Part shown: positions 1 through 60,469 of the stretch, piece by piece
Layout of the letters: the number at the start of each line of letters is the position of its first letter
How positions within the stretch are numbered: position 1 is the first letter of the stretch
Assembly: GCA_000442015.1 (NCBI GenBank)
Contig: KE561047.1
Coordinates: forward strand, 1 to 64,000
From: Rozella allomycis CSF55
Taxonomy: Eukaryota
DNA length: 64,000 bases
Direction of reading: 5' to 3'
Program-made: the position numbers and the translations under genes
The notes under the pieces: generated by a model
Told to the model about the DNA's origin: nothing
Database searches by the model: none
Seen by the model: the letters and a program-made list of their open reading frames with translations, nothing else

Positions 1-3000
1 GCACGGACAGCGGAATGAACGCATCGCTGTTCGACAAGCAGTACAGAATCAGCTCATCGACGATATAGTGGTACTGCACAATCTTGCTAGAAATCGAGTC
101 GGGCGCATTGAAGAAGTGGCAGATGCGCGCTTCGAGGCTGAAAAACGATTGCGCGTTTTTGCTGAACGGGTGGATCGTGTAAAAGGTGGAGAGCCAGTTG
201 GCGTGCTTGCCGACGTACATTGTGAGGGAAATAGAGTGCCGTTCGAAGGGCTTGGCGGAAGAGTATATGCACAGGCGGTCGGAAATGAACTTTTGTTTTT
301 TGGTGAGCATGTTTTGTTTGAGTTCGTGGTGGTTTACTGAGACGAAGAATTTTGTTGATGTTGATGGTTGACTATTTAATGATTGATTATATGAAGATGG
401 ATTATTTAAAGATGGATTATATGAAGATTGAATGTATGAAGATTGAGTATTCAAGGGTTGAGTTTCAAGTGGTATAGACTGTTGCATAATTTGTTGATGA
501 CAGAAATATTTAGTATCGTTGAATAAAACCAAATTAGATAGATTCCCCTTCACTTCAAATTCCAACTGTTGAGGATAAACGAGCAATGAATTTGAATCAT
601 AAAACGCTAATCCTTTAAAAAGAATTGAATTACTGTAGAATGATAATTCATTTGTAGAAACAGTGAAATCAGGTTCAACGCTATTTACATGAATTTTGAT
701 TGATTGACAAACATCTTTGATTAATTTAGGATAAACGTCAATGTAGAAATCAATTGAGCAAGGCGATTGAATAGAAATGAAAATGTAGATTGGAATGAAC
801 TGTAGTGGTTGAACAGTGACTAGTTTAACTATTTCAGGGTAGATTGGTGATAAAGAAAAGACGACATCTAGATTATTATCATTTAACCGCACTTGAAGCT
901 ATTCAAAAGAACTTTAGTAAACTTACGTTGAATTCAACTGGAATTGAATCATCATTTTTTAGTAGAAAAGAAGCAATGTGTTTTTGAATTCCACAGACTA
1001 AATTTCCAGCATTAATAAAATTTGATTTTGTGTTTGTAATTAAAGAAAATAGACAAGAATTGTTTTTGTATTTTTTAGAAACTTCAGCAAAGATTCTTAA
1101 ATATTTAATTTCATTTAAAGATCTAATAACAATGTAACCACATAGAATGCCTAGATTAAATAATAAAAGAGAATTAACCTCTTTTGAATGGAGTTATAGA
1201 AACAATTATTTCATTTAAAGAAATTCTGTCTAGAGATAACCAATTGCTATCCAATGGATTCAACAATTCAATTCTCACAGATTTCAATGATGCAGAATTA
1301 GAAGTATTAGAAGTATTAGAAGAAGTATTAGATGTATTATTATTAAACGTTGTTGTTATGGTTAACTTTCTGGTGATTGGATTGGTGGATTCTTCTACTT
1401 GACCAATATCAATTTCATATCTTTCACCACCACTCTCATTTGAAAGTATTTTACATCCTTTAACAATAATTTTATCTTGTTTTTCAATTGAATTTATTAA
1501 TGAAATATCCAATGGTGATTCACTAGAATTATCTGAATCTATTTGAATTTGAAACTTCTTTTTAATTGTTTCACTTCCATCTGTAAATATTATTTCAGTT
1601 TGAGATTCTATTTCAGCTTCTGTTTCAAAACTTATTAAAGTAGTTGAATTGGGCGGTAGAATTACTCTTTGACATGTTTCATTACTTGTTAACCCCTGTT
1701 CTTCAACTTCTTTTAACTCTTTCTTTGAAAGTGAAAGATAAGTGGAATGAATGATGTTTATTGAAACATCCCAATCACAATAATTAATCAAAAAGATTTC
1801 TTCAAGAATATTTCCACATTGAACATTCCACAACAAATTCTCATTAATTAAACCCACAAGATTAATTTCATTTATTTTTATTTCTTCTTGTTTAACAATC
1901 AATTTACCCAAANTTTACCCAAATTTGAAACTTTATTCAAATCAACCATTTTGAATCTTTTTAATACTCTTTGAATTATTTGAATTTCAATTATTTGTTT
2001 TGGTTTAATTAAAGCTAAAGTGGAATTCACTGTTAATGATAAATAACTATTAAATTCTGGTGACACTTCTATTAATAGTTCAACAGTAGCTTCTTCGTTT
2101 GAAATATTTTCAATCTTTAACATTGAATTATTAGATGTATTAGATGTAGGATATGTTATTTCATTTAATGTTAATTTATTATCTGAAATGTTATGAAAAT
2201 GTAACTGTGGAATTGTAAGATTATATTCAATTGGAATAACCAGTTTATTGTTTGGATTAAATTTGTTAACCAAGCAAAGTGACAATGAATCAATATTTGA
2301 ATCCCTTTCTTTTTTGATATTCTCACCTGTAACAGTTAGAGCCCCTTCACTTTCAACCCCCTCAACCCCTTCACCTTCAACTTTAAGTTTGATGGGATCA
2401 AATGTAACTTTAATGGTAACAGTCTCTTCTTTATCCAAATAAACATCACTCAACTCAAAGAATGAATTCTCATTAACTATTATAGTTTCAATTCTACTAG
2501 CATTTCTCAACGTTAAATAAAACTCTACAATCTTCCATCCATTCAAATACCCAATCCTTCCAACATTAACACTCTTAGGCTCAACTGAAACTAGACTAGT
2601 AACATATTTAAACGTTAAATTCAACATGCTTGTATAATAATCAACATTTTCAAAAAATAGTCTTGTTTTATATTCAACTATTTTACCACTATTTATCATA
2701 TCTAATTCTTTCTTGTTAAAGTTTATTAAATTTACATCCAATGATTCTAAACTAAAGTTTCTTTTATCAGAAACACTTTCTGCTTTTGCTAAATCCTTCA
2801 ATGATCGTTTATAACCACTTTGACCATTATCCTTATTAGTTGCACTAATTACACCTATATCACATGTATCACTTCCACTTTCAAACCATTTGAATGATAA
2901 AAAGTCAAAACTTGATGGTTTAATTGATATAATAGAATCAGTTAAATTTATTAATTGAAATGAAATTGAATTGTTTATACACTTTAAATTATTCAAATCA

Positions 3001-6000
3001 TCCAAATAAACATACACAGGATCAAAAGACACATCACAAATAGAATGAGAAGAAGAAAGTGAAAGAGGTTGGTTTACACTCTGATTAAGAATAGTGTGAC
3101 TATTAGCATGATCAAAACTTTCATCATTGACTCCTCCATCACGAATACTTTCATCTTTAACTTCATCATCATTCACTCTTCCTGTTCCATTGCAAACCCT
3201 TTTAATACTAATTTTATTATCATTGATAAACGCATAAACTTTCACAACAATCTTCTGATCCAAATTCATTTCATTAACAATAACCAAATATTCATCATAA
3301 AATCCAAAGTGATTCCCATTCAATGCAATATTCAAACCTACAGAATTATCAAAAATAGATCCACAATTCGGTTCAACTGAAATATTTCTACTTGATTCAA
3401 TTCTAAATTTTGTGGGCATCTTTGAACTAGTCAATATTAACCTTGTTGTGAATTTGTTTAGAGTAAATAAATTGCCAAAATCTACTTGTTCCTTATCTAC
3501 GAATAACAAGCATTGGCCAATCAATCCTTTAATCTTTACAGTCTGTGAAGTTAAATAAACAAATAGTGAGTTATCTGTACATACGTTATCATCTTTCAAT
3601 ACATCACTTTTGACCACTTCACCTTTAACAACTTCAACCACTTCACCCTTAACATCTTCACCTTTAACAACTTCATCTTTTCCTTCAAAAGCTTTGTTGA
3701 AAATGGAAAACTTTAATCCCCCAATCAACACCCTAGTCTCAATCTTCTTTGAAGGCAAAATAGAAACAAATATTTCTCTACACTCATTTTTGCCAACAAA
3801 AAGTTTATTAACAGGAACAGAACATTCTCTATTACTAAACACCAAAATCTGCATTATTAAATTGCTTGACACATCAATAAACAAATCCAAATTTGATATA
3901 TTTTCAATCGTTAATGAAACTATCTTTGAATATTTTCTTGTTGAATCTATGTAGCAATATCCCAAGTCTAGTAAATCGTTGCAGGAGAAGTTCAAGTATG
4001 TTTGCTGTATTGTTAAGAATGAGACATTCAATGATGATACAGTTGAATTGTTTTGTAGAATATTAAATGAATCTACAAAGTTTATTACTCGTGATGTCAG
4101 ATTATCATCAACGTTGTCTAATTGACTTTCAACGTTGTCCAAGTGACTTTCAACTTCAAATTGACTTGCTATCTCACCCTCAAAGGGAATGGTTATGCAT
4201 TGCTTACCAATAACATTCGATTTCAATTCAATTTTCAAACATATAGATTCATTACAATTTAATACAAGGGAATTAATAGAATCTAACTCTAAACTTTTAA
4301 ATATTCTCAATTCAACATTTTCACATTCATGATTTATTTTTATTAATAATTTATTTCTATTTTTATTTTCTAATTTAATTGAAAAGAAATATTTTTGAAA
4401 CAATTCAATTCTACCAAGATCTATAAACGTTGGTTCTAAATGAAGTGAATGAGAATGAGACTCTTTAACTACCACTGCATCTACTCCTTCACACGACATA
4501 TCTCTATCAGTTATACTATCTCTATTCCCTTCAACCACACTATTCGTTTCAACGATACTATCTCTATTTCTTTCTACTCCATCCAAATCCCTTTCAACTA
4601 CTCCATCTAAATCCCTTTCCCTTTCAACATCTACTTGTTCACCTTTCACTCGCATTAATTCTCTAAATTTAATAGAATCCAAACAAACAACAGCTTTATA
4701 CTGAACAACCTTAACAACATCAGCATTCTTATACTCCCTCACAACAATCTCACCATCCACATTAAACCACCCCTCCCCACAATCATCACCACTCAACACT
4801 CTAATAGAAGACAGTATTGTAATACAAGTATTCGGCTCCAACGTAAAAGAAACAAAAGAATCACTAATCTTTTTAAACTTGGGTACATTCAATCCATTAC
4901 TAACATTAAAATTTTCTAATTGAGATAGTTTGTCTTTGATTTTATTCACTTTATCAAATCTATTCTTTCTAATCGCTATTTTCAATTTCTGCTGCAGATT
5001 CTCAAATAGTTCTTCCTGCTCTTTAGATAGTATTGCATTGTTGGTTGATACCTCCAAATTCACATTCAAATCAACTGAATTCTCCTTGTAAAATAATTCA
5101 TATTGTCTTGTTATTTTGTCTGTATTGTTAATCACTATTGGCTTGAATGAACTAGACTCATTCAACAAACAAACTCCATAATCTATTTCTAATGATTTAA
5201 TAAAGAATGAACATGGCTTTCTTATCACAGACTTTATTATTATTTCTTTAACATTCTCTCTATTAAACAGATTTTCTATTATCAAACTCTCTTGCAACTG
5301 GCCAACTAGACTTGGCTCAAATATAAACTCAATCTCTCTCTTCCCATAACCTTTAATCACTCCCATTCTGCCCTTTGATAATCTAATGTCCCCCGATGCT
5401 ACACTACCAGTCTTTTTAATCAAATACATCACCGGTGTCTCCATTACATTCTTCAACACTATTGTCTTTGTCTTTTTATCACCTCTGCTCAAATTACCAA
5501 AATTTATATTCTTCTGGTTGACATCAAAATTTGAATTAAACAATACGCATCTCACATTCAAATCACGCAACGAAAGACTATTTTGATTCAGAGAGTGATG
5601 AGATGAAGTAATTTGAGAGTGAGTTGGAGAATGATTTAGAGATATATTTTCACTAACTTTCTCTTCATCTTCAATAATCATAAACGTCAATTTCCCTTCT
5701 TCTCTCCTCAACTTACTCTTAAACTTTCTATTCTCCAAACATGGATTAAACACCAACACTCCCAACACAATTTCATCCTTTTCTTCAAAATTAACAACCT
5801 CACTCTCCACAAATATCTTATCTTTAATACACCTCTCAATTTCTCTCTTCAATGTCAAATATATTCTAACAAATCTCTCATCATTCTTATAGTTATTCAT
5901 ACTCGATAATATCTCAAATGATATTGGCAACAGGAAAGGATATTCATACACTCTCAATTCTTCTAGCAATATTGTTGATATGTTCTTTATTAATACATCT

Positions 6001-8619
6001 TCACTTGATATTAGTCTATTCAATACTTCCTTTATTTTGTTTATTGTTGCTTCTGAATAATTCAATTCAATCTCTTCCCTCTTTATTGATTCTCTCTTCA
6101 GTAACATTGAATGCTCCCTACTGGTGGTGGGACTGGGCGACGCTAAATCAAGAAAGTTTAAATTAAATGAATTAAAAGTATTAACAGAATCTTCTTTTCT
6201 ATCTTCAAATAAAGATGAATTCTTTCTATCTAAAATTGACGACTTTCTCTCTTCAAATGTCCTTCTCTCTTCAAATGTCNAAATTGACGACTTTCTTTCT
6301 TCGAATGTCCTTCTCTCTTCAAATGTCTTTTTATCTTCAGACATTGTTGAATCCTTTCTCTCTATACTTTTATCTATCCCACTTCTCTCTACACCACACT
6401 TCTCTATTCCAACTTTCTCTGCACCAACACCCTTCTCAGTTAAACTCTTCCTCTCTATCCTCCTCTCAGTCTTCCTCTCCACAATACTCTTCCTCTCCCT
6501 CTTACTCCCCATAGACTTAATAACTAACCCCCTGTCCTCCATACTTTCCAACAGCTTCTCCCGCCTCTCCTGAACTCCAATCTTGGGCGATCCAATCGTC
6601 GAATTCAAACTCATATTCATCCAACTGCTAATAGACTCTTTACTCGAATTCACTTGGTCAATATAAAACTCAACCTTGTTTCGGTAAAAATAAATCTTCA
6701 TCTCCTCCTTTTTATACGTAGACTCAACCCGCAACTTTAACACATCCTTCAAACTGTGAATGATAAACGACTTGACACTCGTAGAATTAATCGAAACATT
6801 GCCAAAATCTATAAAATTAGTCCCAAAACACGTCATCAGTTTATAATAGTTGGAATGAAACGTCACCTTTTGATGATCCATGTTCGTTGCCTTGACTTGG
6901 ATGATCTTGTCATTCTCTCTATTCAGCAAATTCAACACTACAATCTCCTTTCTATACTCGGGATTAACCTTGCGCGGAAATATATCAATCTTTATTGTAA
7001 CACTCTGTCGCGCTGGTATATTAATCTCCTCTTTAAAACAATGCAACACCTTGGACGCAAACTTTATCATCACATGGCTATTCACATCACTCATATTGCT
7101 TATCGTAATCGGCAACGACTTTAACGTGCCAACATCCACATTGCCATAATCTAAACAATTCGTATTCACTTGGATAAATGACGTACAAACCTTTCTCTTC
7201 TTTTCATTTAATTTACCTTTGATTTACACAAAATCACCTTCTTTTCTTTAATATTGCTCTCCTTGGCTTCATATTCAATACAAATCTTAAAATTCCTCTT
7301 TACTAACACACCAGCCTTGGTTTCATCATCTACTTCTCTCGCTGCCTTGTACAACACATTAATCGCCTTTTCACTCCCAGCTTTCAATATCATTTCTTCA
7401 ACTACATTCATCTCATTCACCTGATATTGATAATCCATAATCTCTTCTTGCATAGGCACAGGCGTACTCGTCCTACTATTCACACTCACCATACTACTAG
7501 TCATACTAGACACCCCCATATTCAACTCCAAACTATTCAATCCCAAACTACTCTTCTCAATCATAACCCCACTCATACTACTAAACAAACTAGAATCCTC
7601 ATATCTCTTCATCTCCCCCGCTTCCTCCTCCTGACTCAACTCAAACACCAAATTACAATCACTATCAAATCTCAACTCCAAATTACAATCACTCATATTC
7701 CTCATAACTATCCTCTGTCTCGTCCATATCCCTGTACAGCAGTTCCCAAAATCAAGCACCTTATCCATCGGCTTATCATTACACGACAACATCAACAAAC
7801 TCTCCTTCACAGTCGCCCTCGATACAGCCTGGATCTTCACACACTCACTATTCAACGCATCATTCACATTCTCCAGTATCATCTCACACTGCACCTCGCC
7901 AATCTCCTTTGGCTCATACATAATCCTCACATCCTGGTGCGAATACGGCAACACTGTATTCCTATTCAACACATCCACAGCCTCCCCAGTATCCCCATAC
8001 GTCAGCTTAAACCTTTCATCACTCACACTCACACTCCACTGCAAATCAATCGCAGACTTGTTCCACACAGTAAACACCTTGAAAAACGTCCCACCTATAC
8101 AACCATTCCAAACACCTTACCAACCACACAATCGTCAAACGAGATCGTCCCATTCTCACCCACATCACTCACCATCACACTCTGGCACACCTGCGCCTGG
8201 AACCCAACAACACTCCTCTCATCCTCACACGCAAACACAATCTCCCCACCCACCCGCACATAGTCAAACGTCCGGTCGCTATCCACCTCCATCTGCATCT
8301 CACAGTCCTTGCTCGCCAAATACGTCATAATCACACGCACAGTCTCATGTCCCGCCACACTCACCCCATCCACAAAATCAATCTCATTAAACACTTGGTT
8401 ATACTCCAATGCATCGTCTTCATCACAATCGTTGCACAGATTCGCATTAGACAGCTGGAATCCAATAGATGGCAGGTCGCTCGAAAATCGAATATGCAGG
8501 CGCCGAGCTGTCAGGTTCGTTATCTGGAATACATGCAGCTTGGACACTTGGTTCAGGTACACCGATTCTAGTGTAAACGGATTAGGGAAATCAATGAGCC
8601 GGAAAAGACTGGAATGCAT
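1..8619 (-). CDS. Giant (>2,700 aa) multi-exon protein with repeated ASH/PapD-like Ig-fold modules (Hydin/CFAP47-like architecture); 3' end runs off the window
   Basis: ORFs 8095-8619, 7208-8077, 1899-7169 and 1174-1911 are joined by short GT-AG introns and one n-associated frameshift at about 1912. Repeated (L/I)D(F/Y)G..(V/I).....I.N motifs (LDYGNVDVG, IDFGNVSIN, INFGNLSRG, IDYGVCLLN, VDFGNLFT). The reading frame stays open to base 1 (...YHYIVDELILYCLSN...). Confidence 0.6.
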
Positions 8620-8713
8620 TTCCGAAATTTGAAAGTTTTTTGCGTGAATATTGTCAGTTTATGATCTATTTAAATATTGGGTTTCAACAGTTGGAAAAGG
8701 TCTAGGAGTTGCC

Positions 8714-22110: not shown

Positions 22111-23640
22111 ATGATTTTCTTAATACCGGTTTTTGTAGCGTTTTTCTTCTTACCTGGGATGCAGTCCCATCTGTGCCCTGATGAAATAGAAAATTTTTTG
22201 AATAGCAAAAATGCTACATCCTATTTGTCGACCAGAATGATTGATAATTATATCGAGAGAGGAAATTTCTACAACAATGAAAAATACATTGAATGTCTTC
22301 ATACGTACCTAGCAAAATGTTTGACTATTAAAGTAGCCGAGGAAACAATACAGGACTATGCTCCTAGATTTGCGGAGAAAATAGTGTCAATCTTAATAGA
22401 AAAAGGCAATCTGGAAGTGCGGCCTTGTAAAGAAATGAATGCTGATCTTCATAACTTTTTGGAGCTTTTAAACGACATTATATCACCTAACGGTATTTTT
22501 GATGATTTAGCGCTTCGAATGTTTTCATTGCTTAGTTTTATAGATGTGACATGTGCTACAAATTACGACCTCAACAAAATGTTTTTCTACGATAAATTGG
22601 CCGAAATATTTAGTGACTCAGAGAAGATGAAAGCCGTGAATATTACCAAATTCTACAAATTAAAGGACAATCTCGCTGTCGTCAGCCTTCCACTTCTTCA
22701 AAGTTTGCCTTTTAGTGAGACATTCTATGATATCCATTTTTCATATATGAGACATTTAGATACAAAAAATTGTCTGAGCGAAAATTCAAAAATATGCATA
22801 CTTCACAACTATGAAGAATATACATCCTTGTTTCCAGATTGTGCTTTATATTTGCAAGTTTTTTTTCAAAGTTTGAATCCGTATGTCGACAAATGGCCAA
22901 GGGAGTGGCTCTTCAATTACGGAAAAAATTGTGCCGCTATCAAAAAGAAAAATATTTTGTATGGAAATCAAGATAAATGGCCCTTAAATAACATTAACAT
23001 TTCAATGTTTGATCCCAAAGATGAATTCTCGGATTTATTTTTGTTTATGAAGATCCTTTATGCGATGTATAGAGATCCTCAAATAATTAATAGATTTTTG
23101 TTATTTAATACATCATCCCATGAATTTGATGTTCCTTTTATTCTTGATATTTCTAACAATTTAACTCTTGCAGTCAAGGATGAGTTGCCATTCCGAGATG
23201 AAATCAAGGATCCTCCTTTTATTCGGGTAATAGTAGAGGCCAAAGAATGTTTGTCGTACTTAGCAAGAGATAAAATTATAACTATTCAACAACAGAGATT
23301 GTTGAATGAATTAATGGATACGCATGCGTCTAACTATAGAATACCTAATGAATGGTACATTAACGTTCTCTTTTTTTATCTTTTCTCCAACTATATGGAT
23401 GATATCATAAATTCCCAAGCATCAGGCCATATACATATTGGTCCAGTAAATGCCTTCATCAAGAAAGTCATTGAACACTCACATCAATGGCTTTATCAAG
23501 AAGAAGATAACTTGGAAATTGTTTTAGCTGCATGGATAGTTTCTATCAGTATTGGAATCTTTAGTACAGTGTATTACATCGCACGAGAACTTTACGAACG
23601 AACAAAGCGGAAAAGTACTATTTTTGTAGCCCAGCAATAG
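22111..23640 (+). CDS. Intronless orphan type-I membrane protein (signal peptide, Cys-containing ectodomain, C-terminal TM)
   Basis: 509-aa ORF; hydrophobic N-terminus MIFLIPVFVAFFFLPGMQS; TM IVLAAWIVSISIGIFSTVYYIA followed by a basic tail. Confidence 0.75.
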   Translation: MIFLIPVFVAFFFLPGMQSHLCPDEIENFLNSKNATSYLSTRMIDNYIERGNFYNNEKYIECLHTYLAKCLTIKVAEETIQDYAPRFAEKIVSILIEKGNLEVRPCKEMNADLHNFLELLNDIISPNGIFDDLALRMFSLLSFIDVTCATNYDLNKMFFYDKLAEIFSDSEKMKAVNITKFYKLKDNLAVVSLPLLQSLPFSETFYDIHFSYMRHLDTKNCLSENSKICILHNYEEYTSLFPDCALYLQVFFQSLNPYVDKWPREWLFNYGKNCAAIKKKNILYGNQDKWPLNNINISMFDPKDEFSDLFLFMKILYAMYRDPQIINRFLLFNTSSHEFDVPFILDISNNLTLAVKDELPFRDEIKDPPFIRVIVEAKECLSYLARDKIITIQQQRLLNELMDTHASNYRIPNEWYINVLFFYLFSNYMDDIINSQASGHIHIGPVNAFIKKVIEHSHQWLYQEEDNLEIVLAAWIVSISIGIFSTVYYIARELYERTKRKSTIFVAQQ

Positions 23641-33811: not shown

Positions 33812-35456
33812 ATGCAAGATGGAGAAAAACGTCTTGGTGTTTTTAATGTTTTATACAAAAAAAGAAGTGGAAAACTTCATGTATTTAATTTACAATTAAA
33901 GTGGTCTCTTGAGGATGAATCTGTATATGAAGTTTTGTTGAATTACAAAGATATAAAGAGTATCAAGGTATTATTATGAGATAAAAAGGTCATGCTGTGA
34001 ATCCTTCGAAAGACAAACCAATGATAAAAATTTTAACGGAAAAAGAATCCTACATTTTCACATTTATCTCTGGCGTAGAAGAAAGAGATCATGTGAAAGA
34101 GTTAATAACAAAGTATTTGCGAATAGGCAAAGGAATGAATCCAATCATCACAGATAAGGAAGTGCGATTGAGACTTTTAGTCTTGAAGAAATATCCTGAA
34201 TTGGCTCGATTAAGGGAAGAATTGGTTAGCAACAAGGTCATGACTGAAGATGAGTTTTGGGAAACAAGACAAGTAACTCTTTGGTTTTTTATTTTAAAAG
34301 AACATTTTATTACAAGAATCTATCGAAGAAAATCAAAAGAGAGGAATTCCCGGCTCAGTTTTGAAAGAGCTCAAGCCAACGACGACTGATGATCAAACAA
34401 TACGTTTTTCTATTACTCCAATCAAAATGCAAACAATATTCGCACAATATCCATCGCGTATGATTCTATTCTATTATTTTAGTAGTTCATAAAATGTACA
34501 AGGAAATGGTCCCAAACAAAATATCTGAAAGAGAGTTTTGGACTTTGTATTCTCAATCAAAATTTATTCATGGAGAAAATGCGTCAAATAAAAATGCAAT
34601 TTTTGATTCCTGCTATGAAAAGGATTCAAAAATGAATCTTTCCGATATGACCAAAGAAATTGGGAAGTGGAGCGATGTCTCCAAAACTGAAAACGATTAT
34701 TCCCCAGAAATAGTAATTCTTTTACTTATTTAATCAACAAAGATTGACTTTGAGAAAGAAAGTCGGATTCAGGCCAGTTTAAAAAGATTCAACAAACAGA
34801 GTTTAGCCTTGCTGAATTCCACGACAAAGTAAATTTTCCAACGTATAAAAACCAGCAAAACTTCTTCTAATGATGAACGCGATTCACTGATCATAGAAGA
34901 CTTGGTCCCGTCAAAAGATGACAACTTTATTCCCTTGACATTTTCAAACAACCCTTTGAATAAAAATTCGATTTCTTCGAAAATCACCAAAGAAGATATA
35001 AATTCTTATCTTAACAAACTGAAAAAAGAATTGCAAAATCCTTCTTTCAGTTTTCAAACGGCTGCTGGCTACGATGAAATGCGAAATTTAAACTTGATTC
35101 CACCCAGCAATATAGACTTGCGCAAAGAAACAAGTAAAATTATTATGGGATATCGAAAAGTAATATCTAAGATTCCTAATTTTCCTTACGATGAAGTAGT
35201 AGCTTTTCACAACAAAACCATGGAAGTACTGCGGCATTTTTGGAGCACATTTCCTTTAAATTCTCAAGATAAGGTAGAAAAGAACCAAAAGATGGTCCAA
35301 GTAATAGAATCGTTAATGGAAGGTTACAATGAATGGATTAACTCGGGAGAAGAGAGAAGATCGATTTTTGAAAATCTTCTCAGAAATACATATTCATCCA
35401 TGCTAAAAGCTATCGAAAAGGGATATGCAGTACACAATCTACCCAGCACAAATTAA
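33812..35456 (+). CDS. TFB1: TFIIH p62 subunit (Tfb1/GTF2H1)
   Basis: PH domain (YKKRSGKL), BSD domains (MTEDEFWETR; VPNKISEREFW), EVLRHFWS. Confidence 0.88.
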
Positions 35457-35506
35457 GATACATGTGTAATAAAACTGTTCTTTATTATTCCATATCATTA
35501 GCCACT

Positions 35507-35604
35507 CAAGGACCCAGTAGAGTACCAGCCCACAAAATTTCCGTTCCCATCCTACCCCATTTTTTGGTCAAAAGTGGGCTTATGAGAGTAAATCTACGGG
35601 CTTG
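35507..35604. ncRNA. Candidate structured RNA (long interrupted hairpin) in a convergent intergenic region
   Basis: Nested pairings caag/cttg, ccc-gtaga/tctac-ggg and agcccac/gtgggct; GC-rich relative to flanks; TATA element at 35629-35637. Confidence 0.3.
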
Positions 35605-35727
35605 GAAAATAGGTGAACTCAAGCACGATTTATATAAGGATCACGACAGTTAATAATAATTTGGGGGATAATCATTATGCATATCATATCATTTCTAAAA
35701 CTGTTTTATTGTCCGGTCATAGACCTT

Positions 35728-37374
35728 TTAAGCCAGATGAAATCCGCTTTTGGATCCTTCAGTTATTGATATTGTCAGATCGTTTCTTAGTCTATCCACA
35801 TCATCATAGAAAATCCAAATGAAAATAATATTTCCACAAGTCTGAACAAATGGAATCTTTTTGTTTCGGTCTACCCAACCTTCGATAGTTATTTGGACTC
35901 CTTCGAGGTCTAATGGAACCGAATCATACGCAGTTATGTACTTGAACAGTTTTAATCTCATGTCATCATCGAAAGATTTCACCACCTATTCTAAAGTTTT
36001 AAATCTGTTACATTCCAAAACATTGTCCACGTTTTTTCAGTGATGTGTACGCCTTTCACGGATAAATTACTAAATACTTCTAAATCGATAAAGTCTTTGC
36101 CTGTGAGTTCATCACGCAATTCTATCCAAGTTGTAGGTCCTATATAAGAAGGAAAACAAAGAGAAAAGATTCGTTCGATAAAGTCATTATGATTTTGATA
36201 CTTATCTCGCATATACCAATTAACCATGTAATTCTTAAAAGCTTCCAAGTTTCTTTTCTGAACATATTCATACTCTGTAAAAAATCTTTCGCCATTTGGT
36301 GACGCAAATGGCAGCTGCAGGTCCTTCAAGGTTTCCTCATCCATTTCGCTAGATCGACGTAAAGTACAATTTTTACAGTATTACATTTATGCTTTTGGCA
36401 GCCAAAGAGTCTTCTTGTTCCAAAATATCGAATGAGCTACTGTAATTGCCAGAAAATATCATGAACACCGAAGGCTTGAATTTAACCGGAAGAGGAATTC
36501 GATATACCCATGCTATTTTAATCAAGTAGGCGAAAGCTCCCAGTCTCACATGATCTAAAATGTGTTCCCGAAATCGATATTTGCCATCCATATCAGCCTC
36601 GAAGAAATCAGAATTCTTCACACATTGCCCAACAGCATTTGCCACAAACTCTCTAAAATGATATTGAAGTTAAATTTACTTGAGTAATCCCCCGTTATCT
36701 TGGCCCATTTCATTTTCGTATAATATTCTTAACATACAATCTTGAGATGTCGTCAGGTTATTTATGAATTTGTTGTCGTGTAGTTTTTTAAAAAAGTCAT
36801 TAAACTCATTTCCTCTTTGAACGACTATTTCGCAAGAAGTGGGGCGTTTGGATCGAGTTATTGGCATAGTCTCGGCTCCAAATCTCAGAAGAAAACAATA
36901 CATGTGATCGTTTTCATCGTTACAGTTGATATTAGAGATTTCTGACGTGGAAAGCTGTCGCGATTTTGCATTACCATTGTCATTTATGAGAACGTGATTT
37001 TCACCCGACACCAATAAAAAAGCACCTTCTTGGTTGCGGAAAGTCTTATATAATAACTTGAATTTAGCTTGATTAATGTTATAGTTTGTAAATTCATACA
37101 CATTGTTCGTTAAAGCCAATGCTCTCCCAATAGGATCTGTTATTATGAAAGATCCTTCTATTCCCTCAGTTAAAACCATAAACAAATTATGCATTTCAGA
37201 ATTCGAATTTGAAGGAAAGTCGTAAAATCTCGGTCGCACGGAATTCGTTGAGCAAAGAAAGGGATATCTATCGGGATACGCAGGACTTAGCAAACTAATA
37301 ATATTCACAGGAGATCTTAAGCAATCTATCAGCGTTAAAAATAGAAAACTAGAGCATATCAAGGTAAAATACAT
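35728..37374 (-). CDS. Signal-peptide-bearing HECT-domain E3 ubiquitin ligase (4 exons)
   Basis: N-terminus MYFTLICSSFLFLTLIDC. Spliced HECT motifs: YENEMGQDNGGLLKEF, SINVILEMD, MFWNVVKSFDDDMRLKLFKYIT, IPFVQTCGN (catalytic Cys at 35836-35838), terminal GFHLA* with the -4 Phe. Confidence 0.82.
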
Positions 37375-37488
37375 GGGTCCAATTTTTGCGTGGCGCTGTC
37401 GGCTGTAGATGAATTGGGTGGCGCCTACAGTGCCAGAAAATGTCAAAAAAGTTATAAATATATTATGTTTTTATTATGGCTAACTACA

Positions 37489-38501
37489 TTAGTACGAATC
37501 CGAATCTTCGTAGTCGATATCTTTTCTCAATATTTGACTCTGCGCTCTAGTCCTGTAGGTAAAGAATTGGTACAGAATCTATTGAATTCACTTTAACAAA
37601 TTACAATTGAATCTAAAAAGAGGGTACCCAACCTAATTTAATATTTTGAAATAGATTACGAGCCACAAAGCCATGGAAGCATTCCTTTAATATATTCCCA
37701 GTCTAAAGAATGGAAAAACACTGAAAGCGAATACGATATGTTCCCCAACATACCAAATACAAAGAGACCTAAAGAAAGTCCCTACCTTGAAGGATCATTA
37801 AGCTTACTTCACATGATCTTTTTTCAGCCTATCGTTTATTTCTATATATAATTACATTTTTTAGTATTTGAGGTATTCTTGCTCCAATAAACGCAACTGC
37901 AGATGAATAACCAAGAATGTTGGCAATGTACGCATCCGCGGTCTTTCTCATCTTTTCAAGTATTAATTACACTGCTAAATACAATTGAAGCAGCTGATAC
38001 ACTTGGTATCATAGAAGTGGCAACTGTAATTGGTGTCACCATCTGAACTATATGTCGAAGTCTGGAGTTCAAAAGGGGGTCCCTTTCATTGGAGTTTTCA
38101 ATGTCATCAGGGTTGGTGGATAGGGATTTAAAAACATGCCTCCGATAGTAATATACTTGTGCAAGTAATAATAAATCCATAACCAGGAAGTAGGTATGAA
38201 TAAATACCTATAGATTACATCCCGTAAAACTTACCAAAGTCACAATCCAATCAGTAAACAGCAAGCCTGCTAATGAAAGTACATCTGCAACTATCCATAT
38301 ATACAGGAAAAGCAAAGAAAGGCCTTCACCGGTCTTATTCTTGTAATTTGAATAAATTTGGCTGTTCGATTCAAAAGAAATAATTACGGAGAAAAAACAA
38401 TCATAAACATAATAATCTTAATTTTAACTTCTCATTGTGATTACTGATATAAAACCGGAAACCTTAGATGCTACTTGAAATGATTCAGAGAGTAGTTGCA
38501 T
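37489..38501 (-). CDS. PQ-loop vacuolar cationic amino-acid transporter (Ypq/PQLC2-like)
   Basis: FSQIYSNYKNKTGEGLSL.FL.IW..AD and ARIPQI repeats; many small exons. Confidence 0.85.
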
Positions 38502-50555: not shown

Positions 50556-52394
50556 TTTGTCTTCTTGAAGCGAATTATAATGCTCCTCTAATTGCATCTG
50601 CGTCTCCATTTGCTGCTGGAGCCTATTCTCCAACTCTCTCTGGTTTCTCATCTTGTTTTGCAGTTCGGCTTCAATAAGCGCCTTTTCTTTTTCACTAGCG
50701 TGATCGTATATTCCTTCGCCTCCTACAAGCAATTGGTTCTCTAGCTCCTTTAGCTTTTGATCCAGTCTTTCCTTTTCTTCCTTTTCTCTTTCCAATTCTT
50801 TTCTTTTATTTTCCATCTCTATCTTCACTACATTATCTTGTTGCGATTCCGTTGTTTCCGGCAAGTTTTCTTCATGTAAATCTTCTTCGTCGGAAATTGT
50901 GTCCTCGTGTGGAATCACATCTTGATTTACTTCATTAACATTCATTCCTTTCTCTCCCTTTGCCTTCTTTTCTTCAATCATCTTTTTTAATCGTTGAATT
51001 TCTTCTTGATATTCTCTTAACAATGCATCTTTAGGATCCTCATTAATCTTGGGTTTGTTCTTTATGCTCTTTGCTCTATTCGCGTATCTCAGACTACTCA
51101 ATGTCTCTTCATAATTANAACACTCTTCCCATCAACTAGCGCGGAAATACAGTTGCCCAGTGCGGACAATGACAGGTTTATTTTAGTAGCCTCCTTCAGC
51201 CTCTCTCCAGTTGCCCCAGTTTTTGATTGTCTTTCGCTACCTGCCATATCAACCAAATGTAGCTTTCCAGCTTTAATCAAAGTATTCCCATTAACATGAG
51301 TTTCAGAAGACTCAACTGTTATGGTGGAATGATCGTGACAAATGCTCATTCTGATTCATGTTCGTTGCACCAACTATTCTATTCTTTTGACCAACATTCA
51401 TCANTTTCTGTCACGTTTGTTAAATGCAAGCTATGTTGCTTCGATAAGTAATCGGCGAGTGATACGATGTCTAATTAACGCATAAATTTGACAAGTCCTT
51501 GAGGTGGTGCGGGGAAATGACCAAAGTGGCGCGGGGAAATGATCTAACAGAACAAATTGCAAGAAGAAATCAAGATTTCTCTGACGTTAGCAAGAAAATG
51601 AGGTTTACGCTTCCCATTCAAGGCGCNCTTTCTCGTTGTATATTCCTAAGTATGAAGCACGGACAAGAAATCGCTTACACAGCGAGTCATTTATATTCGA
51701 GAATATCTGAGAAAACGAGTTTGGTATTATTCCGCCCAATTCAGGAACAATGAAGATCACGCACTCCTTCCATGGTAAAAATTTTCCTGTTCCAGTCTTT
51801 GCTTACTAGGCAAATATAGTCCCATTNCACTCAACTGTTATGGTGAAAATGGAGTGTGATCGCGACGAATGCTCATTCATGTTCGTTGCACCAACTATTC
51901 TATTCTTTTGACCAACATTCATCAATTGTTCCATCTCTTGAATACTCTTGACAACAAAATTAGATAAATCTTTCACATACACACCAGTTTCAGGATGTTC
52001 TTTTAGTTCCAACCCTTTAGGTGTTTTGCTCAATAAATCCCTCACTTCCTCGTTGTATATTTCTAAATATGAAGCGCGGACAAGAAATTGCTTATTCGGN
52101 ATTTATAATATCAGACACACAGTGTATCAATACTATGAGTTTACATGTTCACGAGAACTGTGATTTTTGAGAAATATTCTAAGTAGAAAGATATTTTTAG
52201 ACTATAAGNTATCGATTGTTACATTTTTTGAATACTCTTTACAACAAAATTAGATAATCTTTCACATACACACCGGTTTTAGGATATTTTTTAGTTCCAA
52301 CGCTTTAGGTGTTTTGCTCAATAAATCACTGACTTCCTCGTTGTATATTTCTAAATATGAAGCACGGACAAGACAAAAAATCGCTTACTCGGCG
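50556..52394 (-). pseudogene. Out-of-order, partly degenerate kinesin-II (KIF3-like) fragments: neck/stalk, switch II and switch I
   Basis: [88 protein letters not shown]; blocks separated by single n. Confidence 0.8.
51501..51545. repeat. Two inverted copies of the same GG(T/C)GCGGGGAAATGA motif
   Basis: ggtggtgcggggaaatgacc and gtggcgcggggaaatgatc. Confidence 0.7.
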
Positions 52395-52395
52395 N

Positions 52396-53050
52396 CGTGG
52401 TAAACCATAATTCTGATGTGAATTGACTGCCTCTGTCACTAACAATGTTTTTTGGTATTCCATGAAATTTAATGATACCATTAATCAATAATTTAACGAC
52501 TTCGTCTGTTTTGCATTCTTTTGTTACTGGAAATAGATGAATCATTNTTCTGAATCAGGTAAATCAATGATAAAATCCATAGATATAGATTCCCAGGGCT
52601 TGTAAGGTATTTCTAGCGGTTGTAACAATCCATATGGTTTATGTTTGTCACTTTTCTCAGTTAGACAAGATTTGCATTCTATTATATATTGTTGAATATC
52701 TTTAAACATATGTGGCCACCAATACTTTTTTGCAATTTGATTATATGTCTTCTGTACTCCTGGATGGCCTGATAATGGATAATTGTGAAANGTCTGTACT
52801 CCTGGATGTCCTGATAATGGATGATTGTGAAATTGAAATAGAATATCATTTCGACACAACTTGGGAATATATATTCGATTGTTAAACCACAATAAATTAT
52901 TCATCGTTTTAAATTTGTTATTTGTTTCATTTTTCTTTTGTATACAGAATGTATCTGATGTTGTTGCATTTTGTAGCTTGCATAACGATAACAAAGTTTT
53001 ATATTTAATTAAGCATTTTTCGATGTTCGTTTTAGCATGTTCTTTCGTAT
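52396..53050 (-). mobile_element. Ty3/Gypsy LTR retrotransposon integrase fragment
   Basis: HHCC zinc finger H..P.SGHPG..KT....YWW...C..C, GLLQPLEIP..PWESISMDFI, HGIPKNIVSDRGSQFTS. Confidence 0.9.
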
Positions 53051-53414
53051 TATTTGCAACAGGATGTCGCAAACCTTTCATCCGATTCCTTTGCGCGGGC
53101 GACCGATGAGACGATTTCTTTGAAGTGCGATTCGACGATGACGTGCAGTTATTGCAGCAGACTGAGGGAGGGGACGGACCGATCGAGCCGGATTTTCGTT
53201 GTGATTGGTACCAGAAGAATTATCTTGTTTGCATTTCGGTGGCTTGAATTTCCGTTTGATTGCGAGGCATTCATTTCATTTTTATTTTGAGTTGAAGTAT
53301 TTTCCCATGTGCCATTGTCTCTCCTACGATAACCTAAACATTTTTCATATATTAGACTTACTGCATGATTAATTTCAATATAAAAATTTGGAGGCGCAGT
53401 TTTTCTATTTTCAT

Positions 53415-55200
53415 TCAAAATTGATCAATTGCACATAAACCCCTGTCCGAAGAAAGATTGGTCACGTGCGGATAGAATTCTTTGAGATACGAATAAGCAC
53501 CAGGGCAAGATACAACATGTTCACGCGATAGCATTTGATTACATTGTTTACAAGATTGATGACGAGCAATATTGCCACAACACCAACGAAGGATAGTCTG
53601 TCTCATTTTAGGGTCAACGTATATATTTGGTCTTAACAAATGATGATGGCCCTCACTTGCTTTTGTCTCAATGGATTCGGATATAGTTGAAGGATAGAAA
53701 GGTTCAATAGAATCAATATGTTTGGCCTTGAGTCTGTCTTTACAGTACATTTGCGTGATACAAGATGGTTCGCGTTTGAGAGTATTGAATACATGATTTA
53801 ACTTTTTAGCCCCCGGCCATAATAGATTCTGACTTACTATGGGTTCAATCAAGGAAGTTTTGTTTCGATCTGATAAGCCACTCCACCACAATCTGACATC
53901 TGGACTTGTCTTGTTTGTAGAATTATGCAATTTTTCTGCGAACCTGATAGAGATAGTTGCGTTCCTAGCCTTAATGAATTCGATGAGTAATAAATTGTGG
54001 AGTGCTTTTATCCGTAGACTATCCTTCTAAGAATAACATTTTGGGCTTTTTGTAACACATAACGTGCAGCTATCGGGATCATACTTAAACTCAGACCGTA
54101 TTATAGTTGTGGGCGCATAAAAGTTTTATAGACATTTACACTTGCAGATATTGGCCAGTCGGATCCATTAAATCCACACGTACTTAACATACATGCAGTT
54201 CTCTTAGCTTTCTCAGACCTTGCCTTTACAAGAGACATCCAGTCGATTCCGAAGGCATTGAATGGCATTCCTAAATAGTCAGCAGTATCTATGCGGGACG
54301 GGGGTTCATTGTATAATTTTAGATTTACTTTGTTACGAAAGATATAAACAAAACACACTTGTCAGGAGCAAATCTCATTCCTACGCGCAAGCTCCATTCC
54401 TCACAAATTTTCAACAAAGTAATTGCATCTTGAACATTTTTACAATGAATATTTCCATCATCGGCAAAGAACAGACAGTTAGTTCCATAGCCTCCGGTAT
54501 TGAGCTTTGGAGTATCTTCTTTCATTAGTTCTTCAATAAGCTCATTGATAAAGAAATTAAATAGAATTGGATTTAATGAAGAGCCTTGTAAAAGGCCCCT
54601 TTTGTTCTCTAACGGATGCGACATTTTTCTATTTATAAACTAATTTTGATGAAATATAGTCAAACACGGCCTTAAGTATTTCAATTACTGCATTTGGAAT
54701 TTGGAATTTGACTTTGAGTCGTTTCCATAAAAGTCTTCTATCTACAAGGTCATAAGCAGCTTTGAAGTCCAAAAAGATTTTTATAATAGAGCCATTGTTT
54801 CGAATTATTTCACTCAAGCTAAATATAGAATGCATAGTAGATCTATTCGGTCTGAACCCGCCTTGGAAGGGTTACGGCAAGGTGCAATAAAGGTAGCAGT
54901 CATCGCTCATAGAGACGACGCGAGACGCATGTGAGTGCTATTGGTCTATAATTCTTGATTTCCTTGTCGGATCCTTTCTTTTTATAAGTGGAAACGATTA
55001 ATGCCTGTTTCCATTCTGCCGGGATACACTTAGTATTTGAAATACATGAAAATAGAAAATGAAGAGCTTTAGCAACTGGTTCACCACCATAGTAGTAGAC
55101 TTCGGCCATTAGACCAACCGCCCCAGCTGCCTTACCCAGTGCCATAGATCTGATGTTTGCAAGAATAGTAAGTTAGTTCATCAATATTAAATACCGACTC
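53415..55200 (-). mobile_element. Degenerate non-LTR (LINE) reverse transcriptase with C-terminal Cys/His finger
   Basis: GKAAG, NYRPIALT, QGGFRPNRST, FLDFKAAYD, GLLQGSSLNPILFNFFI, FFADD, YLG, CKQC...EHVVSC; frameshifted. Confidence 0.9.
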
Positions 55201-55590: not shown

Positions 55591-56229
55591 ANAAAAAGTG
55601 ATGCGGTATATATTGAATAAAAGATTTATTAATAAACAATTTCATAATCTGGGTACGAAATGTACTTGAATTGAAATCTGATCTATATATTCTAGAATCT
55701 ACAAATGAAAATTCTATTATTCCAACAATTTCAATTTCTCATCTATTTTCTAACGGCGAAGGCTCATGTGAAGCGGACAATGTAAGTGAAAGTGGAAATA
55801 AAATGTATGTTGTTGAATCTTTGTTGTTTTCTAATAGAATAGTGAATTCCTTAAAGACATGGCTCGAAAAAGAAAAACAATCATTCAAAATACTTATGAA
55901 AATACATTGCAAATCATCGACGAAATTCCAATTGACAAATTTATAAAATTCAAAAAGACTTTTTCAAATACTCACAAGGAATTTAAAGATTAAGTTAAAT
56001 CTAAAATGCCCATCCATTCAGGGTTGATTCTATTAAACATTCTGCATTCCAGGAAATAAATTTCAAGGAATTGGAAGATTCCAAAGATTACAAAGAAATC
56101 GATGTCGATGAATTGGATGAAGAGTCCCACTTGACTGCTATTATTCAATCGTTTACATTCATTAAAAGAATGTGAAAATACCCTTGCATCATTTAAAAAG
56201 CAAAAGAGATCAAAATTTGATTCTACATC

Positions 56230-57420
56230 TTTCTCAAAGTGTGAAATTTATTGGCCAACTCGAAGCTCTGAATGGGATTATTTTCCGCAGGATATCATTA
56301 GAGCTAATGATCTTGGTGTGACTTTGCTAGGTGGAGCTTTAGGAGACGGAAGACTTGCTCTGGATATTCTTCACAAACGCATTGATCAAGTCAAAGAAAT
56401 TTTGAAGCAGTTGCAGCTTCTCGAAAGCAGTCAGATACAACTTTTGCTGTTGCGTTCATGCATCGGGCTGCCGAAAATCTCCTACTTTATGCGTACTCGG
56501 AATCCCTCAACTGTCCTTTCTGGGTATGAACGTTTTGACGGTCTCCTAAGAAACACTTTGGAAATTATTGGTGGAGGTGTTTTGTTAGACAGAGCTTGGC
56601 TGCAGGCCTCGTTGCCAATCAAAGAAGGTGGTTTGGGTATCTTGTCGGCAGTGACATGTGCCAACCCAGTCTTTATTGCCTCAATTGTCCAGACTGCAAA
56701 GCTTTGTTCGCAAGAGTCCTTTTTAGCTATTGTTACTGAGAGTGGAGAGCCTTTTGATTATGATGTTTTGTCAGAAGTCCCGAAACCGCAGCATTTTCTA
56801 ACTCAGTGTATTCATACATCCAGTAAGAAGAGTCTCATGTCGACGTCTTTAAATGATCGTGAAAAGGCCCGCCTCCACTCAGTTTCCATTAANTCTTTAT
56901 TGCCTCAATTGTCCAGACTGCAAAGCTTTGTTCGCAAGAGTCCTTTTTAGCTATTGTTACTGAGAGTGGAGAGCCTTTTGATTATGATGTTTTGTCAGAA
57001 GTCCCGAAACCGCAGCATTTTCTAACTCAGTGTATTCATACATCCAGTAAGAAGAGTCTCATGTCGACGTCTTTAAATGATCGTGAAAAGGCCCGCCTCC
57101 ACTCAGTTTCCATTAACTACTCTTGTGCTTTTTTGAATGTGGTACCTATTAAAAGTTTGGGTCTTGCTATTGAATCCAAAGTTTTTTCGGCTGCTCTTCG
57201 TTTGCGTTTAGGACTTACCCATAGGCGATCCTGATATCGTTTGTGCCTCAGCTAAACGTGTCGAAAGACACAATGACATTGTGCGTGTGTCCGCTGCCGC
57301 AGGACGTGATGTTGGCGCTAGAGTTGATTTGGAACCTTCTAGATTATTTCCTGATGATAAGAAACGTCCCGATTTTACAATCGCTGCTGGAGTGGTGAAT
57401 TTACTGCTTTTGATGTAGCT
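56230..57420 (+). mobile_element. CRE-clade non-LTR retrotransposon 3' fragment (RT thumb + restriction-like endonuclease)
   Basis: SKCEIYW, GVTLLG, LLLRSC, QASLPIKEGGLGI, AFLNVVP..LGL..F.AALRLRLG, RHNDIV, EP...KRPDF...AFDV. Confidence 0.75.
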
Positions 57421-58307: not shown

Positions 58308-60046
58308 TTAAATTGACTGTTTATGCTTTTTATAAGCTGCAAATGAAGCGATTCCTAGTACACCAAGTCCGGCCACGATTCCTCCAACAACAACTGTGGC
58401 ATTGGAGTCACCATTGTTATTGTCATCAGCATTATTATCATCCATTTGAACGGTGGATTTGTTTGCGATTTCTTTCTTTGCCACTGAGTCTTGTGGGACT
58501 TGCGCAAAATCTTCAGTATCCTTGACAGAAACATTTGGAGGAACAATTTCATTTTCATTTTGTTCTTGTACTATATTCTCTTTTTCAACCTCTTTAACCT
58601 TAACTTGATCAATGCTCTTCTTAATATGTTCAACATCTACTACAGTGTTATTAGATAATGATTCTTTTGCATTAGTTGATGTTTCCTTTTCTTTAGGCAA
58701 TGGTTCTACTACTGGCTTTTTCACAGTCTTGGACTTGAGGCTTTTGACATTCTTGACACTCTTGAGAATCGCTGAAACAGAAAAACTATAAGGAATCATT
58801 CCACGAACAGAGTAATACAAAATAACAAGAAAAACACCCACACTAATTTAATTGATATCTTAAATTGTTACCTTTCTTTAACAGAAATGAACCCTATAAA
58901 GTTTAAATACTGAGTAATTGACCAAGCCTTGATTTGCTGATCAGGTGTTGCTTCAGATGCTGCTTCCTTAAGATCTTCCACACGAATTTCATCTTTGACT
59001 TTGACAGTAAAACTGGCATGAGGAGATGGCTCTGCAAAGTTCACGCCATTACCATTTGAATCCTTTTCACCGAGCGCTTCATCTACTTTCTTTTTAATAT
59101 CTTCTATATCAGCATCTTCCATATTCTCGAGTTTTTTTTTAATTTCAGTTTTAGTTGGTAATGCATCCGCAGCAATTTCATTATTTGTTGGTAACGCATC
59201 CGCAGTTGTCGTTACTGTAGTTGAAGGCGTGCCGGGACAAGTAGAACCTTCGGTAGTAACGTGACAAGTAGAATCTCCGGTGACAACAATGCTACTTACC
59301 TTTGGCAATTCTACAGGCTTGGTAGACATCACAGCATCAACAGTCGTTTCTGAAGTGTAAGCAGAGTTTGCTGTTGTCACACCTGGGCTTGTAACCGTTT
59401 TAACATTTGGCACTATTGTGCTTGCAGCTGTTGTTGCGACATGAGATTCACCATTGGAAAGATTAACAAGTCCCTGTTTGACAAGTTCAGGAATACCGCC
59501 AAATAGATAACCAACAACTCCTAAAAACGAGACTGCTGCTATTCCTTTCTTAATAGTTGAATGATCATCTTGGCCTCCAGATTTACCAGCAACAGCAGCA
59601 GGAGCAGAAGCAGGTGGTGGCAACTCATCACGACGATTTTCATTATTTTCAAGGCTTGGATTAAAGCTTCCACCATCATCAACTTGAGCCAATTCAAGAG
59701 GATTTGGAGAATTCGGGAGAGAATCATTATCGTCATCATGAGCAGCGGCCGATGTGTGATCATCTTGGCCCCCAGTTTCATCTTTATCAGCGACAGGAAA
59801 TCGATCAACGGGAGGAGCAGGAGCAACAATAGCACCAACCGGAGGAGCAGTAATGCGTTCATACGTCCAGCTATCGCTAGAATGATCAGAAGAATTATCA
59901 TCAAAGTCGTGAGCGGAACGAGCAACACCTGCAGCAAGATTTATGCCGTTTTGACTATTAGAATCGTCGACAGGGCTTGCTAACATAGAGATGACATTTG
60001 TACTATAAAGAGTCAACGCAACAGTTAAGATGCTAGAGAGCAACAT
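58308..60046 (-). CDS. Orphan low-complexity membrane/surface protein (signal peptide, acidic/Pro and Thr-rich regions, 2-3 hydrophobic segments)
   Basis: Two exons (intron at about 58845-58872); internal repeats GGQDDH x2 and ADALPT x2; C-terminal TM VVVGGIVAGLGVLGIASFAAY followed by KKHK. Confidence 0.7.
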
Positions 60047-60469
60047 TTTTTCTGTGTGGCTTGAGGAAAAACCGTCGTAATTACTAAAATTACATCTTAA
60101 AATTATTTATAGATTGGAGTACAAAATTTAGATTGAAATAAATAGTCATTACCTATAAATAGAATACTGAATGAGTCGCACTTTTTTATCGAAATTATTA
60201 TTGTTCCAGGATGTGATTCTAATAATCCCCTTTTAAGGTAATAAATCGATTATCGAATTTCATTATTGCTCTATTTTCCTTGAGAAAACATGACTTTACT
60301 TTTCATAGAATTAAATTCTTTCAGTCAAACATGGCTAAGAGCAAATTAAGACATAGCTGTAAAATTAAATTTGTTGCCCCTAATAAATAAATTATCATTT
60401 ACAGTCAAGAAACAGTTTCTTAATAATTTTGAGTTGAGCAAGGTGGCTCAGTTTGGGCGCCAAAATTGT

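Follow-up and report, generated by a model that had tools for sequence, protein, structure and literature searches.

A divergent HECT-type ubiquitin ligase gene with a signal-peptide-like start, a candidate effector of Rozella allomycis CSF55

The first 64,000 nucleotides (nt) of contig KE561047.1 of Rozella allomycis CSF55 (assembly GCA_000442015.1), here called the window, carry on the minus strand what is, to judge from its sequence, a real, complete and highly divergent gene for an E3 ubiquitin ligase of the HECT type. The predicted gene runs in four exons from an ATG at 37374 to a TAA stop at 35730-35728, and its first 20 codons form a hydrophobic segment that resembles a signal peptide. 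An earlier reading of the same letters, made without database searches (the original prediction), proposed a secreted HECT ligase acting as a parasite effector. We consider a functional, lineage-specific and very fast-evolving HECT ligase to be the best explanation of the predicted gene product, and the effector reading to be plausible. The gene has the following features.

35728-37374, minus strand: complete coding sequence of the HECT ligase in 4 exons, with 521 codons and a stop
37315-37374, minus strand: signal-peptide-like segment, codons 1-20, with Met1, uncharged hydrophobic residues 2-16, then D-C-L-R
37195-37314, minus strand: codons 21-60, the remainder of the N-terminal extension omitted by both deposited models, indicated by codon score and open frame
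36850-37194, minus strand: pre-HECT region, codons 61-175, with no detectable family and low-confidence structure models
35731-36849, minus strand: HECT domain, residues 176-521, split by three introns and recognized by a HECT profile, HUWE1 3h1d, protein P0004 and Pfam PF00632
36653-36679, minus strand: intron 1, 27 nt, GT..AG; retention gives an in-frame TAA, and the junction is also in the deposited model
36349-36376, minus strand: intron 2, 28 nt, GT..AG; junction also in the deposited model
35986-36011, minus strand: intron 3, 26 nt, GT..AG; the Pfam profile is contiguous across it, and the deposited donor differs
36201-36224, minus strand: 24 nt (VNWYMRDK) cut as an intron in the deposited model; 73.1 bits when kept, 68.8 bits when removed
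35836-35838, minus strand: codon of Cys486 (QTCGN), predicted to be the catalytic cysteine that forms the thioester, aligned with the HUWE1 loop Cys

Results

The exons occupy 37374-36680, 36652-36377, 36348-36012 and 35985-35728 on the minus strand and join into 1566 nt that translate into 521 amino acids with 0 internal stops, all three introns being correctly phased. The limits set in the original prediction coincide with the start and stop codons. Searched against proteins, exon 1 had a single match, at 100% identity: EPZ33578.1 (P0001) of Rozella allomycis CSF55, which has 431 amino acids and is annotated as 'HECT domain-containing protein'; the earlier guess of a Rozella-like organism was thus correct. 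Its cluster mate RKP20273.1 (P0002) comes from a second assembly of CSF55, and the two have a single difference, K/N at residue 302, which is either a sequencing error or heterozygosity.

The deposited 431-residue model corresponds to residues 61-521 of the four-exon protein minus 30 residues. Both deposited models begin at Met61 (ATG 37194-37192) and omit codons 1-60. Inside the HECT domain, the 24 nt at 36201-36224 are removed as an intron, and the donor of intron 3 is set about 66 nt further upstream (35986-36077 affected), with the loss of 22 HECT residues including the conserved W-x-x-FW. Splice models were scored with an independent HECT profile built from P0003, P0013, P0005, P0014 and P0004, five proteins unrelated to the annotation. 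The four-exon model reaches 73.1 bits (E 4e-24) in one domain spanning residues 176-519. Removal of the 24 nt lowers the score to 68.8 bits (best domain 63.2 bits, residues 176-511), the long intron gives a fragmented match of 61.5 bits (best domain 41.1 bits), and the deposited model gives 62.0 bits in two pieces. By these scores the 24 nt are more likely coding than intron, and the predicted four-exon model is the best of the four tested and better than both public annotations. The claim that four exons joined by introns of 26-28 nt rebuild a complete but divergent HECT domain therefore stands, with introns of 27, 28 and 26 nt and one domain at 73.1 bits.

Introns this short are normal for this genome, given that 26-27-nt GTA...TAG introns are common in the neighbouring gene. 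Short introns of 26-28 nt seem to have been missed by the deposited annotation. A codon-usage log-odds score trained on 19 long open reading frames (ORFs) of the window gives 0.139 for the HECT gene, within the leave-one-out range of the 19 other ORFs (-0.08 to 0.376). A tblastn search with the joined protein found no second HECT copy in the window; beyond the gene itself it returned one 21-residue match at E 3.8.

The domain is colinear with the five-protein profile from end to end, residues 176-519 lying over profile positions 11-364 of 366. The match to Pfam PF00632 is contiguous across the 26-nt intron: positions 98-221 of the profile fall in exon 3 (21.7 bits) and positions 223-305 in exon 4 (38.1 bits). 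Exon 2 alone has no Pfam family match. The deposited P0001 reaches 53 bits against a cutoff of 23.9, so that the expected match to a HECT profile is found. All the HECT motifs listed in the original prediction are present, one of them with a different spacing. The N-lobe start motif E-x-G-x-D-x-GG-x-x-KEF is in place, and ENEMGQDNGGLLKEF crosses intron 1; FWNVV...RLKL...IT is likewise present, and FWNVVKSFDDDMRLKLFKYIT crosses intron 3, with a gap from F to RLKL of four residues, not three. Cys486 lies in IPFVQTCGN, which aligns with the TC of HUWE1 chains and with TC in 5/5 profile members. The protein ends in ...SGFHLA directly before the stop, with Phe at -4 and in alignment with the GFGL end of HUWE1. 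AlphaFold2 gave models of low confidence, as is expected from an 8-row alignment or a single sequence together with mis-spliced input: P0001 with 8 alignment rows had a mean predicted local distance difference test (pLDDT) score of 43.2 and a predicted template modelling (pTM) score of 0.34, too poor for a fold search, and exon 1 alone had a pLDDT of 36.5.

Word-based searches, with exon 1 against longer proteins and with P0001, returned the deposited protein as the sole match. A phmmer search of 1.84 billion representatives gave three weak non-self matches at E ~1e-4. The two best are the metagenomic proteins P0003 and P0005 (560 and 572 amino acids, E 1.4e-4 and 2.3e-4), and the third is the Chromosphaera HERC-like protein P0004, whose residues 755-1081 align with residues 114-430 of the query, which is the whole domain. 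A profile search added the metagenomic family and one Pythium oligandrum HECT (E 3.9e-7), and nothing else. The best match among PDB sequences is the HUWE1 HECT (E 4.4e-5), aligned at the N-lobe start, the catalytic loop and the C-terminus. The nearest solved sequences, all of them weak matches, are HUWE1 3h1d/6xz1 and yeast TOM1 9cmr, then UBE3C 6k2c and the E6AP C-lobe; exon 3 alone gave chance-level matches to PDB sequences (E >= 0.47).

The metagenomic proteins P0003, P0013 and P0005/P0010, 560-572 amino acids long, have a clear signal-like start, a weak ankyrin match and a HECT domain scoring 136-149 bits. Of named proteins, the one most closely related to them is P0014, a HECT from Pythium oligandrum with a membrane span at its N-terminus. 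Judged by these features, P0003, P0013 and P0005 could be HECT ligases secreted by a eukaryote not yet sampled; scans of metagenome contigs and prokaryote genomes confirmed no genomic locus for them. They are like the Rozella ligase in size, in the signal-like N-terminus and in the C-terminal HECT domain. In an hhalign comparison P0001 residues 142-424 align to columns 225-555 at 96% probability, whereas the N-termini are unrelated. Because the HECT part alone is shared, we treat them as a parallel case and not as a family that includes the Rozella protein.

Translation probably starts at ATG 37374 and not at the annotated Met61, to judge from the reading frame, codon usage and the upstream sequence. 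Met61 is preceded in its frame by 92 open codons. Among positions in window frames that lie outside ORFs of at least 150 codons, 1.5% have 92 or more open codons upstream and 5.5% have 60 or more; since real short exons count towards both frequencies, these are upper limits. Codons 1-60 have a log-odds of +0.073 in frame compared with -0.448 and -0.285 out of frame, and the 32 codons above ATG 37374 score -0.133. Two features lie directly upstream.

37375-37488, minus strand: spacer of 114 nt between the PQ-loop stop and ATG 37374, read from the sequence
37489-38417, minus strand: gene for a PQ-loop membrane protein with several 26-27-nt GTA...TAG introns, identified by Pfam PF04193

Matches to PF04193 lie at 38417-38211 (42.9 bits), 37966-37832 (24.2 bits) and 37781-37659 (16.7 bits, below cutoff). 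The stop of this gene at 37491-37489 was read from the sequence and is not a tool result, and intron enumeration for a full model of the gene gave no ORF longer than 200 amino acids. The sole ATG in the spacer overlaps the PQ-loop stop and runs straight into a TAG. An upstream exon of the HECT gene, which could displace the hydrophobic segment from the N-terminus, is effectively excluded, as a separate PQ-loop gene lies there on the same strand and no usable ATG lies between. A read-through fusion with the PQ-loop gene was also rejected, given the two in-frame stops between them (read from the sequence). With no other usable ATG in the spacer, ATG 37374 would be the first AUG of any transcript that starts there. 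A single RNA run, picked by its species label, yielded no contigs over 35400-37800, which is no evidence about expression either way.

The spacer contains the heptamer GCGCCAC at 37424-37418 and again at 37396-37390, and an AT-rich, TATA-like stretch at about 37466-37451. Across the window the heptamer has 5 copies (21344, 23864, 37390-37396, 37418-37424 and 51526-51532) compared with 1.09 expected, and 5 copies were reached in 1/100 shuffles. Among the copies outside the spacer, one lies 5 nt before the ATG of a 284-codon ORF, one lies 29 nt before an ATG that opens 41 codons, and the third has no clear ORF. GCGCCAC may be a promoter-proximal element or an element of the 5' untranslated region (UTR) in this genome; the numbers are small, and its presence in the spacer gives only a hint in support of a start at ATG 37374.

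From this ATG, residues 2-16 (YFTLICSSFLFLTLI) form the most hydrophobic stretch of the protein, with a top Kyte-Doolittle 15-residue window of 2.19. By textbook criteria, a 15-residue run bounded by Asp17 is signal-peptide-like and short for a typical membrane span. Signal-likeness was scored heuristically, not with a trained predictor, as the best uncharged, proline-free 12-residue window starting at residues 2-12. The start of the 521-residue protein scores 2.5 (mean Kyte-Doolittle), a value reached by 4/229 other first-ATG ORFs (40 codons or longer, six frames), and by 1.3% of the 156 mostly non-coding ORFs with 40-80 codons. With so few ORF starts in the window scoring as high, the segment is unlikely to be a by-product of translating T-rich DNA, and the claim that the first ATG opens a signal-peptide-like segment holds. 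The AlphaFold2 model of exon 1 places a helix at residues 2-20, at low confidence. A mitochondrial presequence was considered and rejected because there are no basic residues before Arg20.

Three other long ORFs with signal-like hydrophobic N-termini start at 22111 and 23876 (plus strand) and at 60046 (minus strand), and may encode additional parasite proteins that are secreted or lie at the surface. One of the three, at 58868-60106, encodes a protein rich in Ser, Thr, Pro and Asp.

Between the signal-like segment and the HECT domain, residues 21-175 have no Pfam family and are not covered by the phmmer relatives, and an ESM Atlas search with residues 1-115 of P0001 gave no usable match. The region without a family match is hence about 155 residues long and not about 180 as first estimated. 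It is by inference the substrate- or partner-binding part of the ligase.

Elsewhere in the window, ORFs at 52542-54026 (minus strand) and 56135-56950 (plus strand) have integrase-like and reverse-transcriptase-like translations and N runs, and look like retrotransposon remnants. The minus strand at 2-8658 holds a series of very long ORFs, one with 1774 codons, that show repetitive low-complexity inserts and N gaps, probably one giant gene.

Discussion

Most likely the ligase carries a signal for the endoplasmic reticulum (ER) and exists in a signal-bearing, exported form, a prediction from sequence that we would expect to hold up about half the time. The route that we infer begins with use of ATG 37374. 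The nascent chain would enter the ER, the signal would probably be cut between residues 18 and 32, and the wall-less plasmodium would export the ligase to the host-parasite interface. If the host cytoplasm were then reached, the ligase would accept ubiquitin from a host E2 on Cys486 and pass it to host proteins picked by the orphan region, residues 21-175. There would be a point in keeping a HECT domain intact within the secretory pathway only if it encounters ubiquitin and an E2. Rozella is described as an unwalled plasmodium inside Allomyces that phagocytoses host cytoplasm (Letcher & Powell 2018, PMC6317583), and it is reported to recruit host mitochondria (PMC10953367).

A number of observations weigh against this reading, the first of which concern the start. 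The log-odds of codons 1-60 is a weak signal: a score at least as high is found in 12% of stop-free 60-codon windows read out of frame, and one as low or lower in 8.7% of true in-frame windows of that length. Both public annotations choose Met61, although the deposited models have little authority on the start because the HECT domain is mis-spliced in them. ATG 37374 has C at -3, which makes leaky scanning to Met61 possible, and Met61 has A at -3. A promoter and a 5' UTR would have little space in a spacer of 114 nt. The segment itself has an n-region without a basic residue, and its best (-3,-1) cleavage sites are atypical, the candidates read from the sequence lying after Cys18 or Ala32. The catalytic loop has TCG in contrast to the TCF of HUWE1 and of 5/5 profile members, and IFIW at the place where L-x-L-P/Y is usual; with a loop this unusual, ligase activity is not assured.

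That the ligase crosses the host-derived membrane into the Allomyces cytoplasm and marks host proteins through host E2-ubiquitin is in our judgement unlikely, if well worth considering. The host plasma membrane is described as pushed inward, the protoplast lying in a compartment inside the cytoplasm of the host (PMC6317583). As the parasite is bounded by host membrane, a signal peptide alone would take the protein to this compartment and not to the host cytosol, and an extra translocation step would be needed. The original prediction, in which a secreted HECT is delivered into the cytoplasm of another cell, was in this respect overstated. Reading of the 521-residue sequence after the signal revealed no known host-targeting motif. 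Should host proteins be ubiquitinated, possible purposes are host remodelling, organelle recruitment and the blunting of defences.

The alternative that fares best is an ordinary intracellular ligase of the parasite, that is, a divergent HUL4-like housekeeping HECT, translated from Met61 or bearing an inert hydrophobic start, which acts on Rozella proteins in the cytosol or nucleus. We regard this as possible, its chances falling clearly short of even. Marin 2018 (PMC5913265) counts 6 HECT genes in R. allomycis, with no canonical HUL4 and with one highly divergent 'Other' outside the six fungal subfamilies, and reads it as an extremely divergent HUL4 relative, in effect a modified housekeeping HUL4. 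This gene of the same organism may be EPZ33578.1, and the term 'signal peptide' is absent from the main text of that paper. Our PDB matches (HUWE1/TOM1, then UBE3C and E6AP), all weak, give no subfamily placement. The codon usage of the gene is ordinary for the window, and both the deposited starts and the A at -3 of Met61, set against the C at -3 of ATG 37374, are what an intracellular ligase would lead one to expect; the 92-codon open frame above Met61, the in-frame coding signal of codons 1-60 and the rarity of such signal-like starts among the ORFs of the window are not, and nor is the position of ATG 37374 as first AUG if the transcript begins in the 114-nt spacer. If Met61 is the start, the gene would be an odd, fast-evolving housekeeping ligase of modest interest.

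A membrane-tethered ligase, with the segment kept as an uncleaved anchor on the ER, endosomal or plasma membrane and the HECT domain facing the parasite cytosol or the parasite surface, seems improbable to us. By the rules of segment length and flanking charge used for membrane orientation, the hydrophobic run, which ends at Asp17 after 15 residues, is short for a stretch that crosses a membrane, and no basic cluster follows it to keep the C-terminal side cytosolic. An anchor would be in keeping with the lack of a clean cleavage site, and Pythium oligandrum P0014 opens with a long hydrophobic span and then an Arg-rich cluster, while 10 of the 56 HECTs of Pythium ultimum are listed with signal anchors (PMC2926784).

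That the gene is a HECT relic, decaying or catalytically dead, whose hydrophobic start arose by chance, is very improbable: the extreme divergence (3 matches at E ~1e-4 among 1.84 billion representatives, and self alone in word-based searches), the odd residue after the catalytic Cys, the altered L-x-L-P motif, the lack of a Pfam match for exon 2 alone and the low-confidence AlphaFold models would fit it, but 521 codons stay open over four exons, the three GT..AG introns are all in correct phase, the protein retains the catalytic Cys, the -4 Phe and G-x-D-x-GG, the domain is colinear with HECT profiles end to end, codon usage is gene-like, and poor models are expected from an 8-row or single-sequence alignment and mis-spliced input.

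The exported ligase that we favour shares with canonical eukaryotic HECT E3s the C-terminal position of the domain, the E-x-G-x-D-x-GG motif, the C-lobe Cys, the -4 Phe and a region on the N-terminal, substrate side. Unlike them, it has Gly where Phe would follow the Cys, an N-lobe shortened in its middle, a signal-like start, and a short orphan N-terminal region without a C2, WW, RLD or ARM-type domain.

The type III-secreted bacterial proteins SopA and NleL are not known to be related in sequence to eukaryotic HECT. What they would have in common with the Rozella ligase is the logic of a parasite-made, Cys-dependent E3 that uses a host E2, whereas delivery in Rozella would be through the eukaryotic secretory pathway. 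PF00632 is the sole family in a Pfam scan of P0001 at E <= 1, and the Rozella protein is thus at most an analogue of SopA and NleL: the likeness drawn in the original prediction survives as a functional analogy and does not extend to sequence kinship.

Microsporidia, the sister lineage of intracellular parasites, have signal-peptide-bearing hexokinases and other host-exposed proteins. The host-exposed proteins are said, after work by Reinke and colleagues in 2017, to be fast-evolving; the abstract of that work mentions no HECT ligase. As with the hexokinases, the Rozella gene would be a case of a normally cytosolic enzyme gaining a signal peptide. Many microsporidia lie directly in the host cytoplasm. 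Rozella, in contrast, is described as lying in a compartment (PMC6317583).

Among eukaryotes, the closest precedent comes from an oomycete. In Pythium ultimum, 16 of 56 HECT ligases are reported with signal peptides by SignalP and 10 more with signal anchors, and the idea that secreted E3 ligases can be effectors was raised for them (Levesque et al. 2010, PMC2926784). It was therefore too strong to state that HECT ligases normally lack signal peptides. Both cases are HECTs of a eukaryotic parasite or pathogen with a secretion-like start. The oomycete belongs to a different kingdom, its HECT expansion is said to be orthologous to plant UPL1/UPL2, and its effector idea rests on signal-peptide predictions (PMC2926784), whereas the Rozella ligase is, as far as seen, a single orphan. 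There is no specific sequence relationship between Pythium HECTs and the Rozella ligase, the Pythium oligandrum match being at E 3.9e-7. A 2026 paper on chytrid metagenome-assembled genomes also speculates that a lineage-specific HECT family manipulates the host (PMC13618815). In the literature searched, wording of the type 'secreted HECT' or 'HECT effector' was not found, and no title or abstract was on a secreted HECT ligase in Rozella or microsporidia. The idea of a secreted HECT is hence not categorically new, since signal-peptide HECTs are reported in Pythium, but in the titles and abstracts of that literature it is not raised for Rozella or its relatives.

Rozella is the earliest-branching fungal parasite and sister of microsporidia, and its molecular host manipulation is almost unexplored. 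Both public models of this gene differ from ours at three places, namely the start, which we place at ATG 37374 with considerable confidence, a false 24-nt intron and a wrong donor. As these models omit the signal-like start, secretome surveys based on them would have missed the protein. If the export reading is true, a HECT routed into the secretory pathway would be a concrete and testable effector candidate, and would extend to the fungal side an idea raised so far from signal-peptide predictions in oomycetes. Action in the host cytoplasm, if true, would imply a new protein-translocation step at the Rozella-host interface, and would make the ligase the first HECT effector of eukaryotic origin with demonstrated action in the cytoplasm of another eukaryote, at the base of the fungal/microsporidian lineage.

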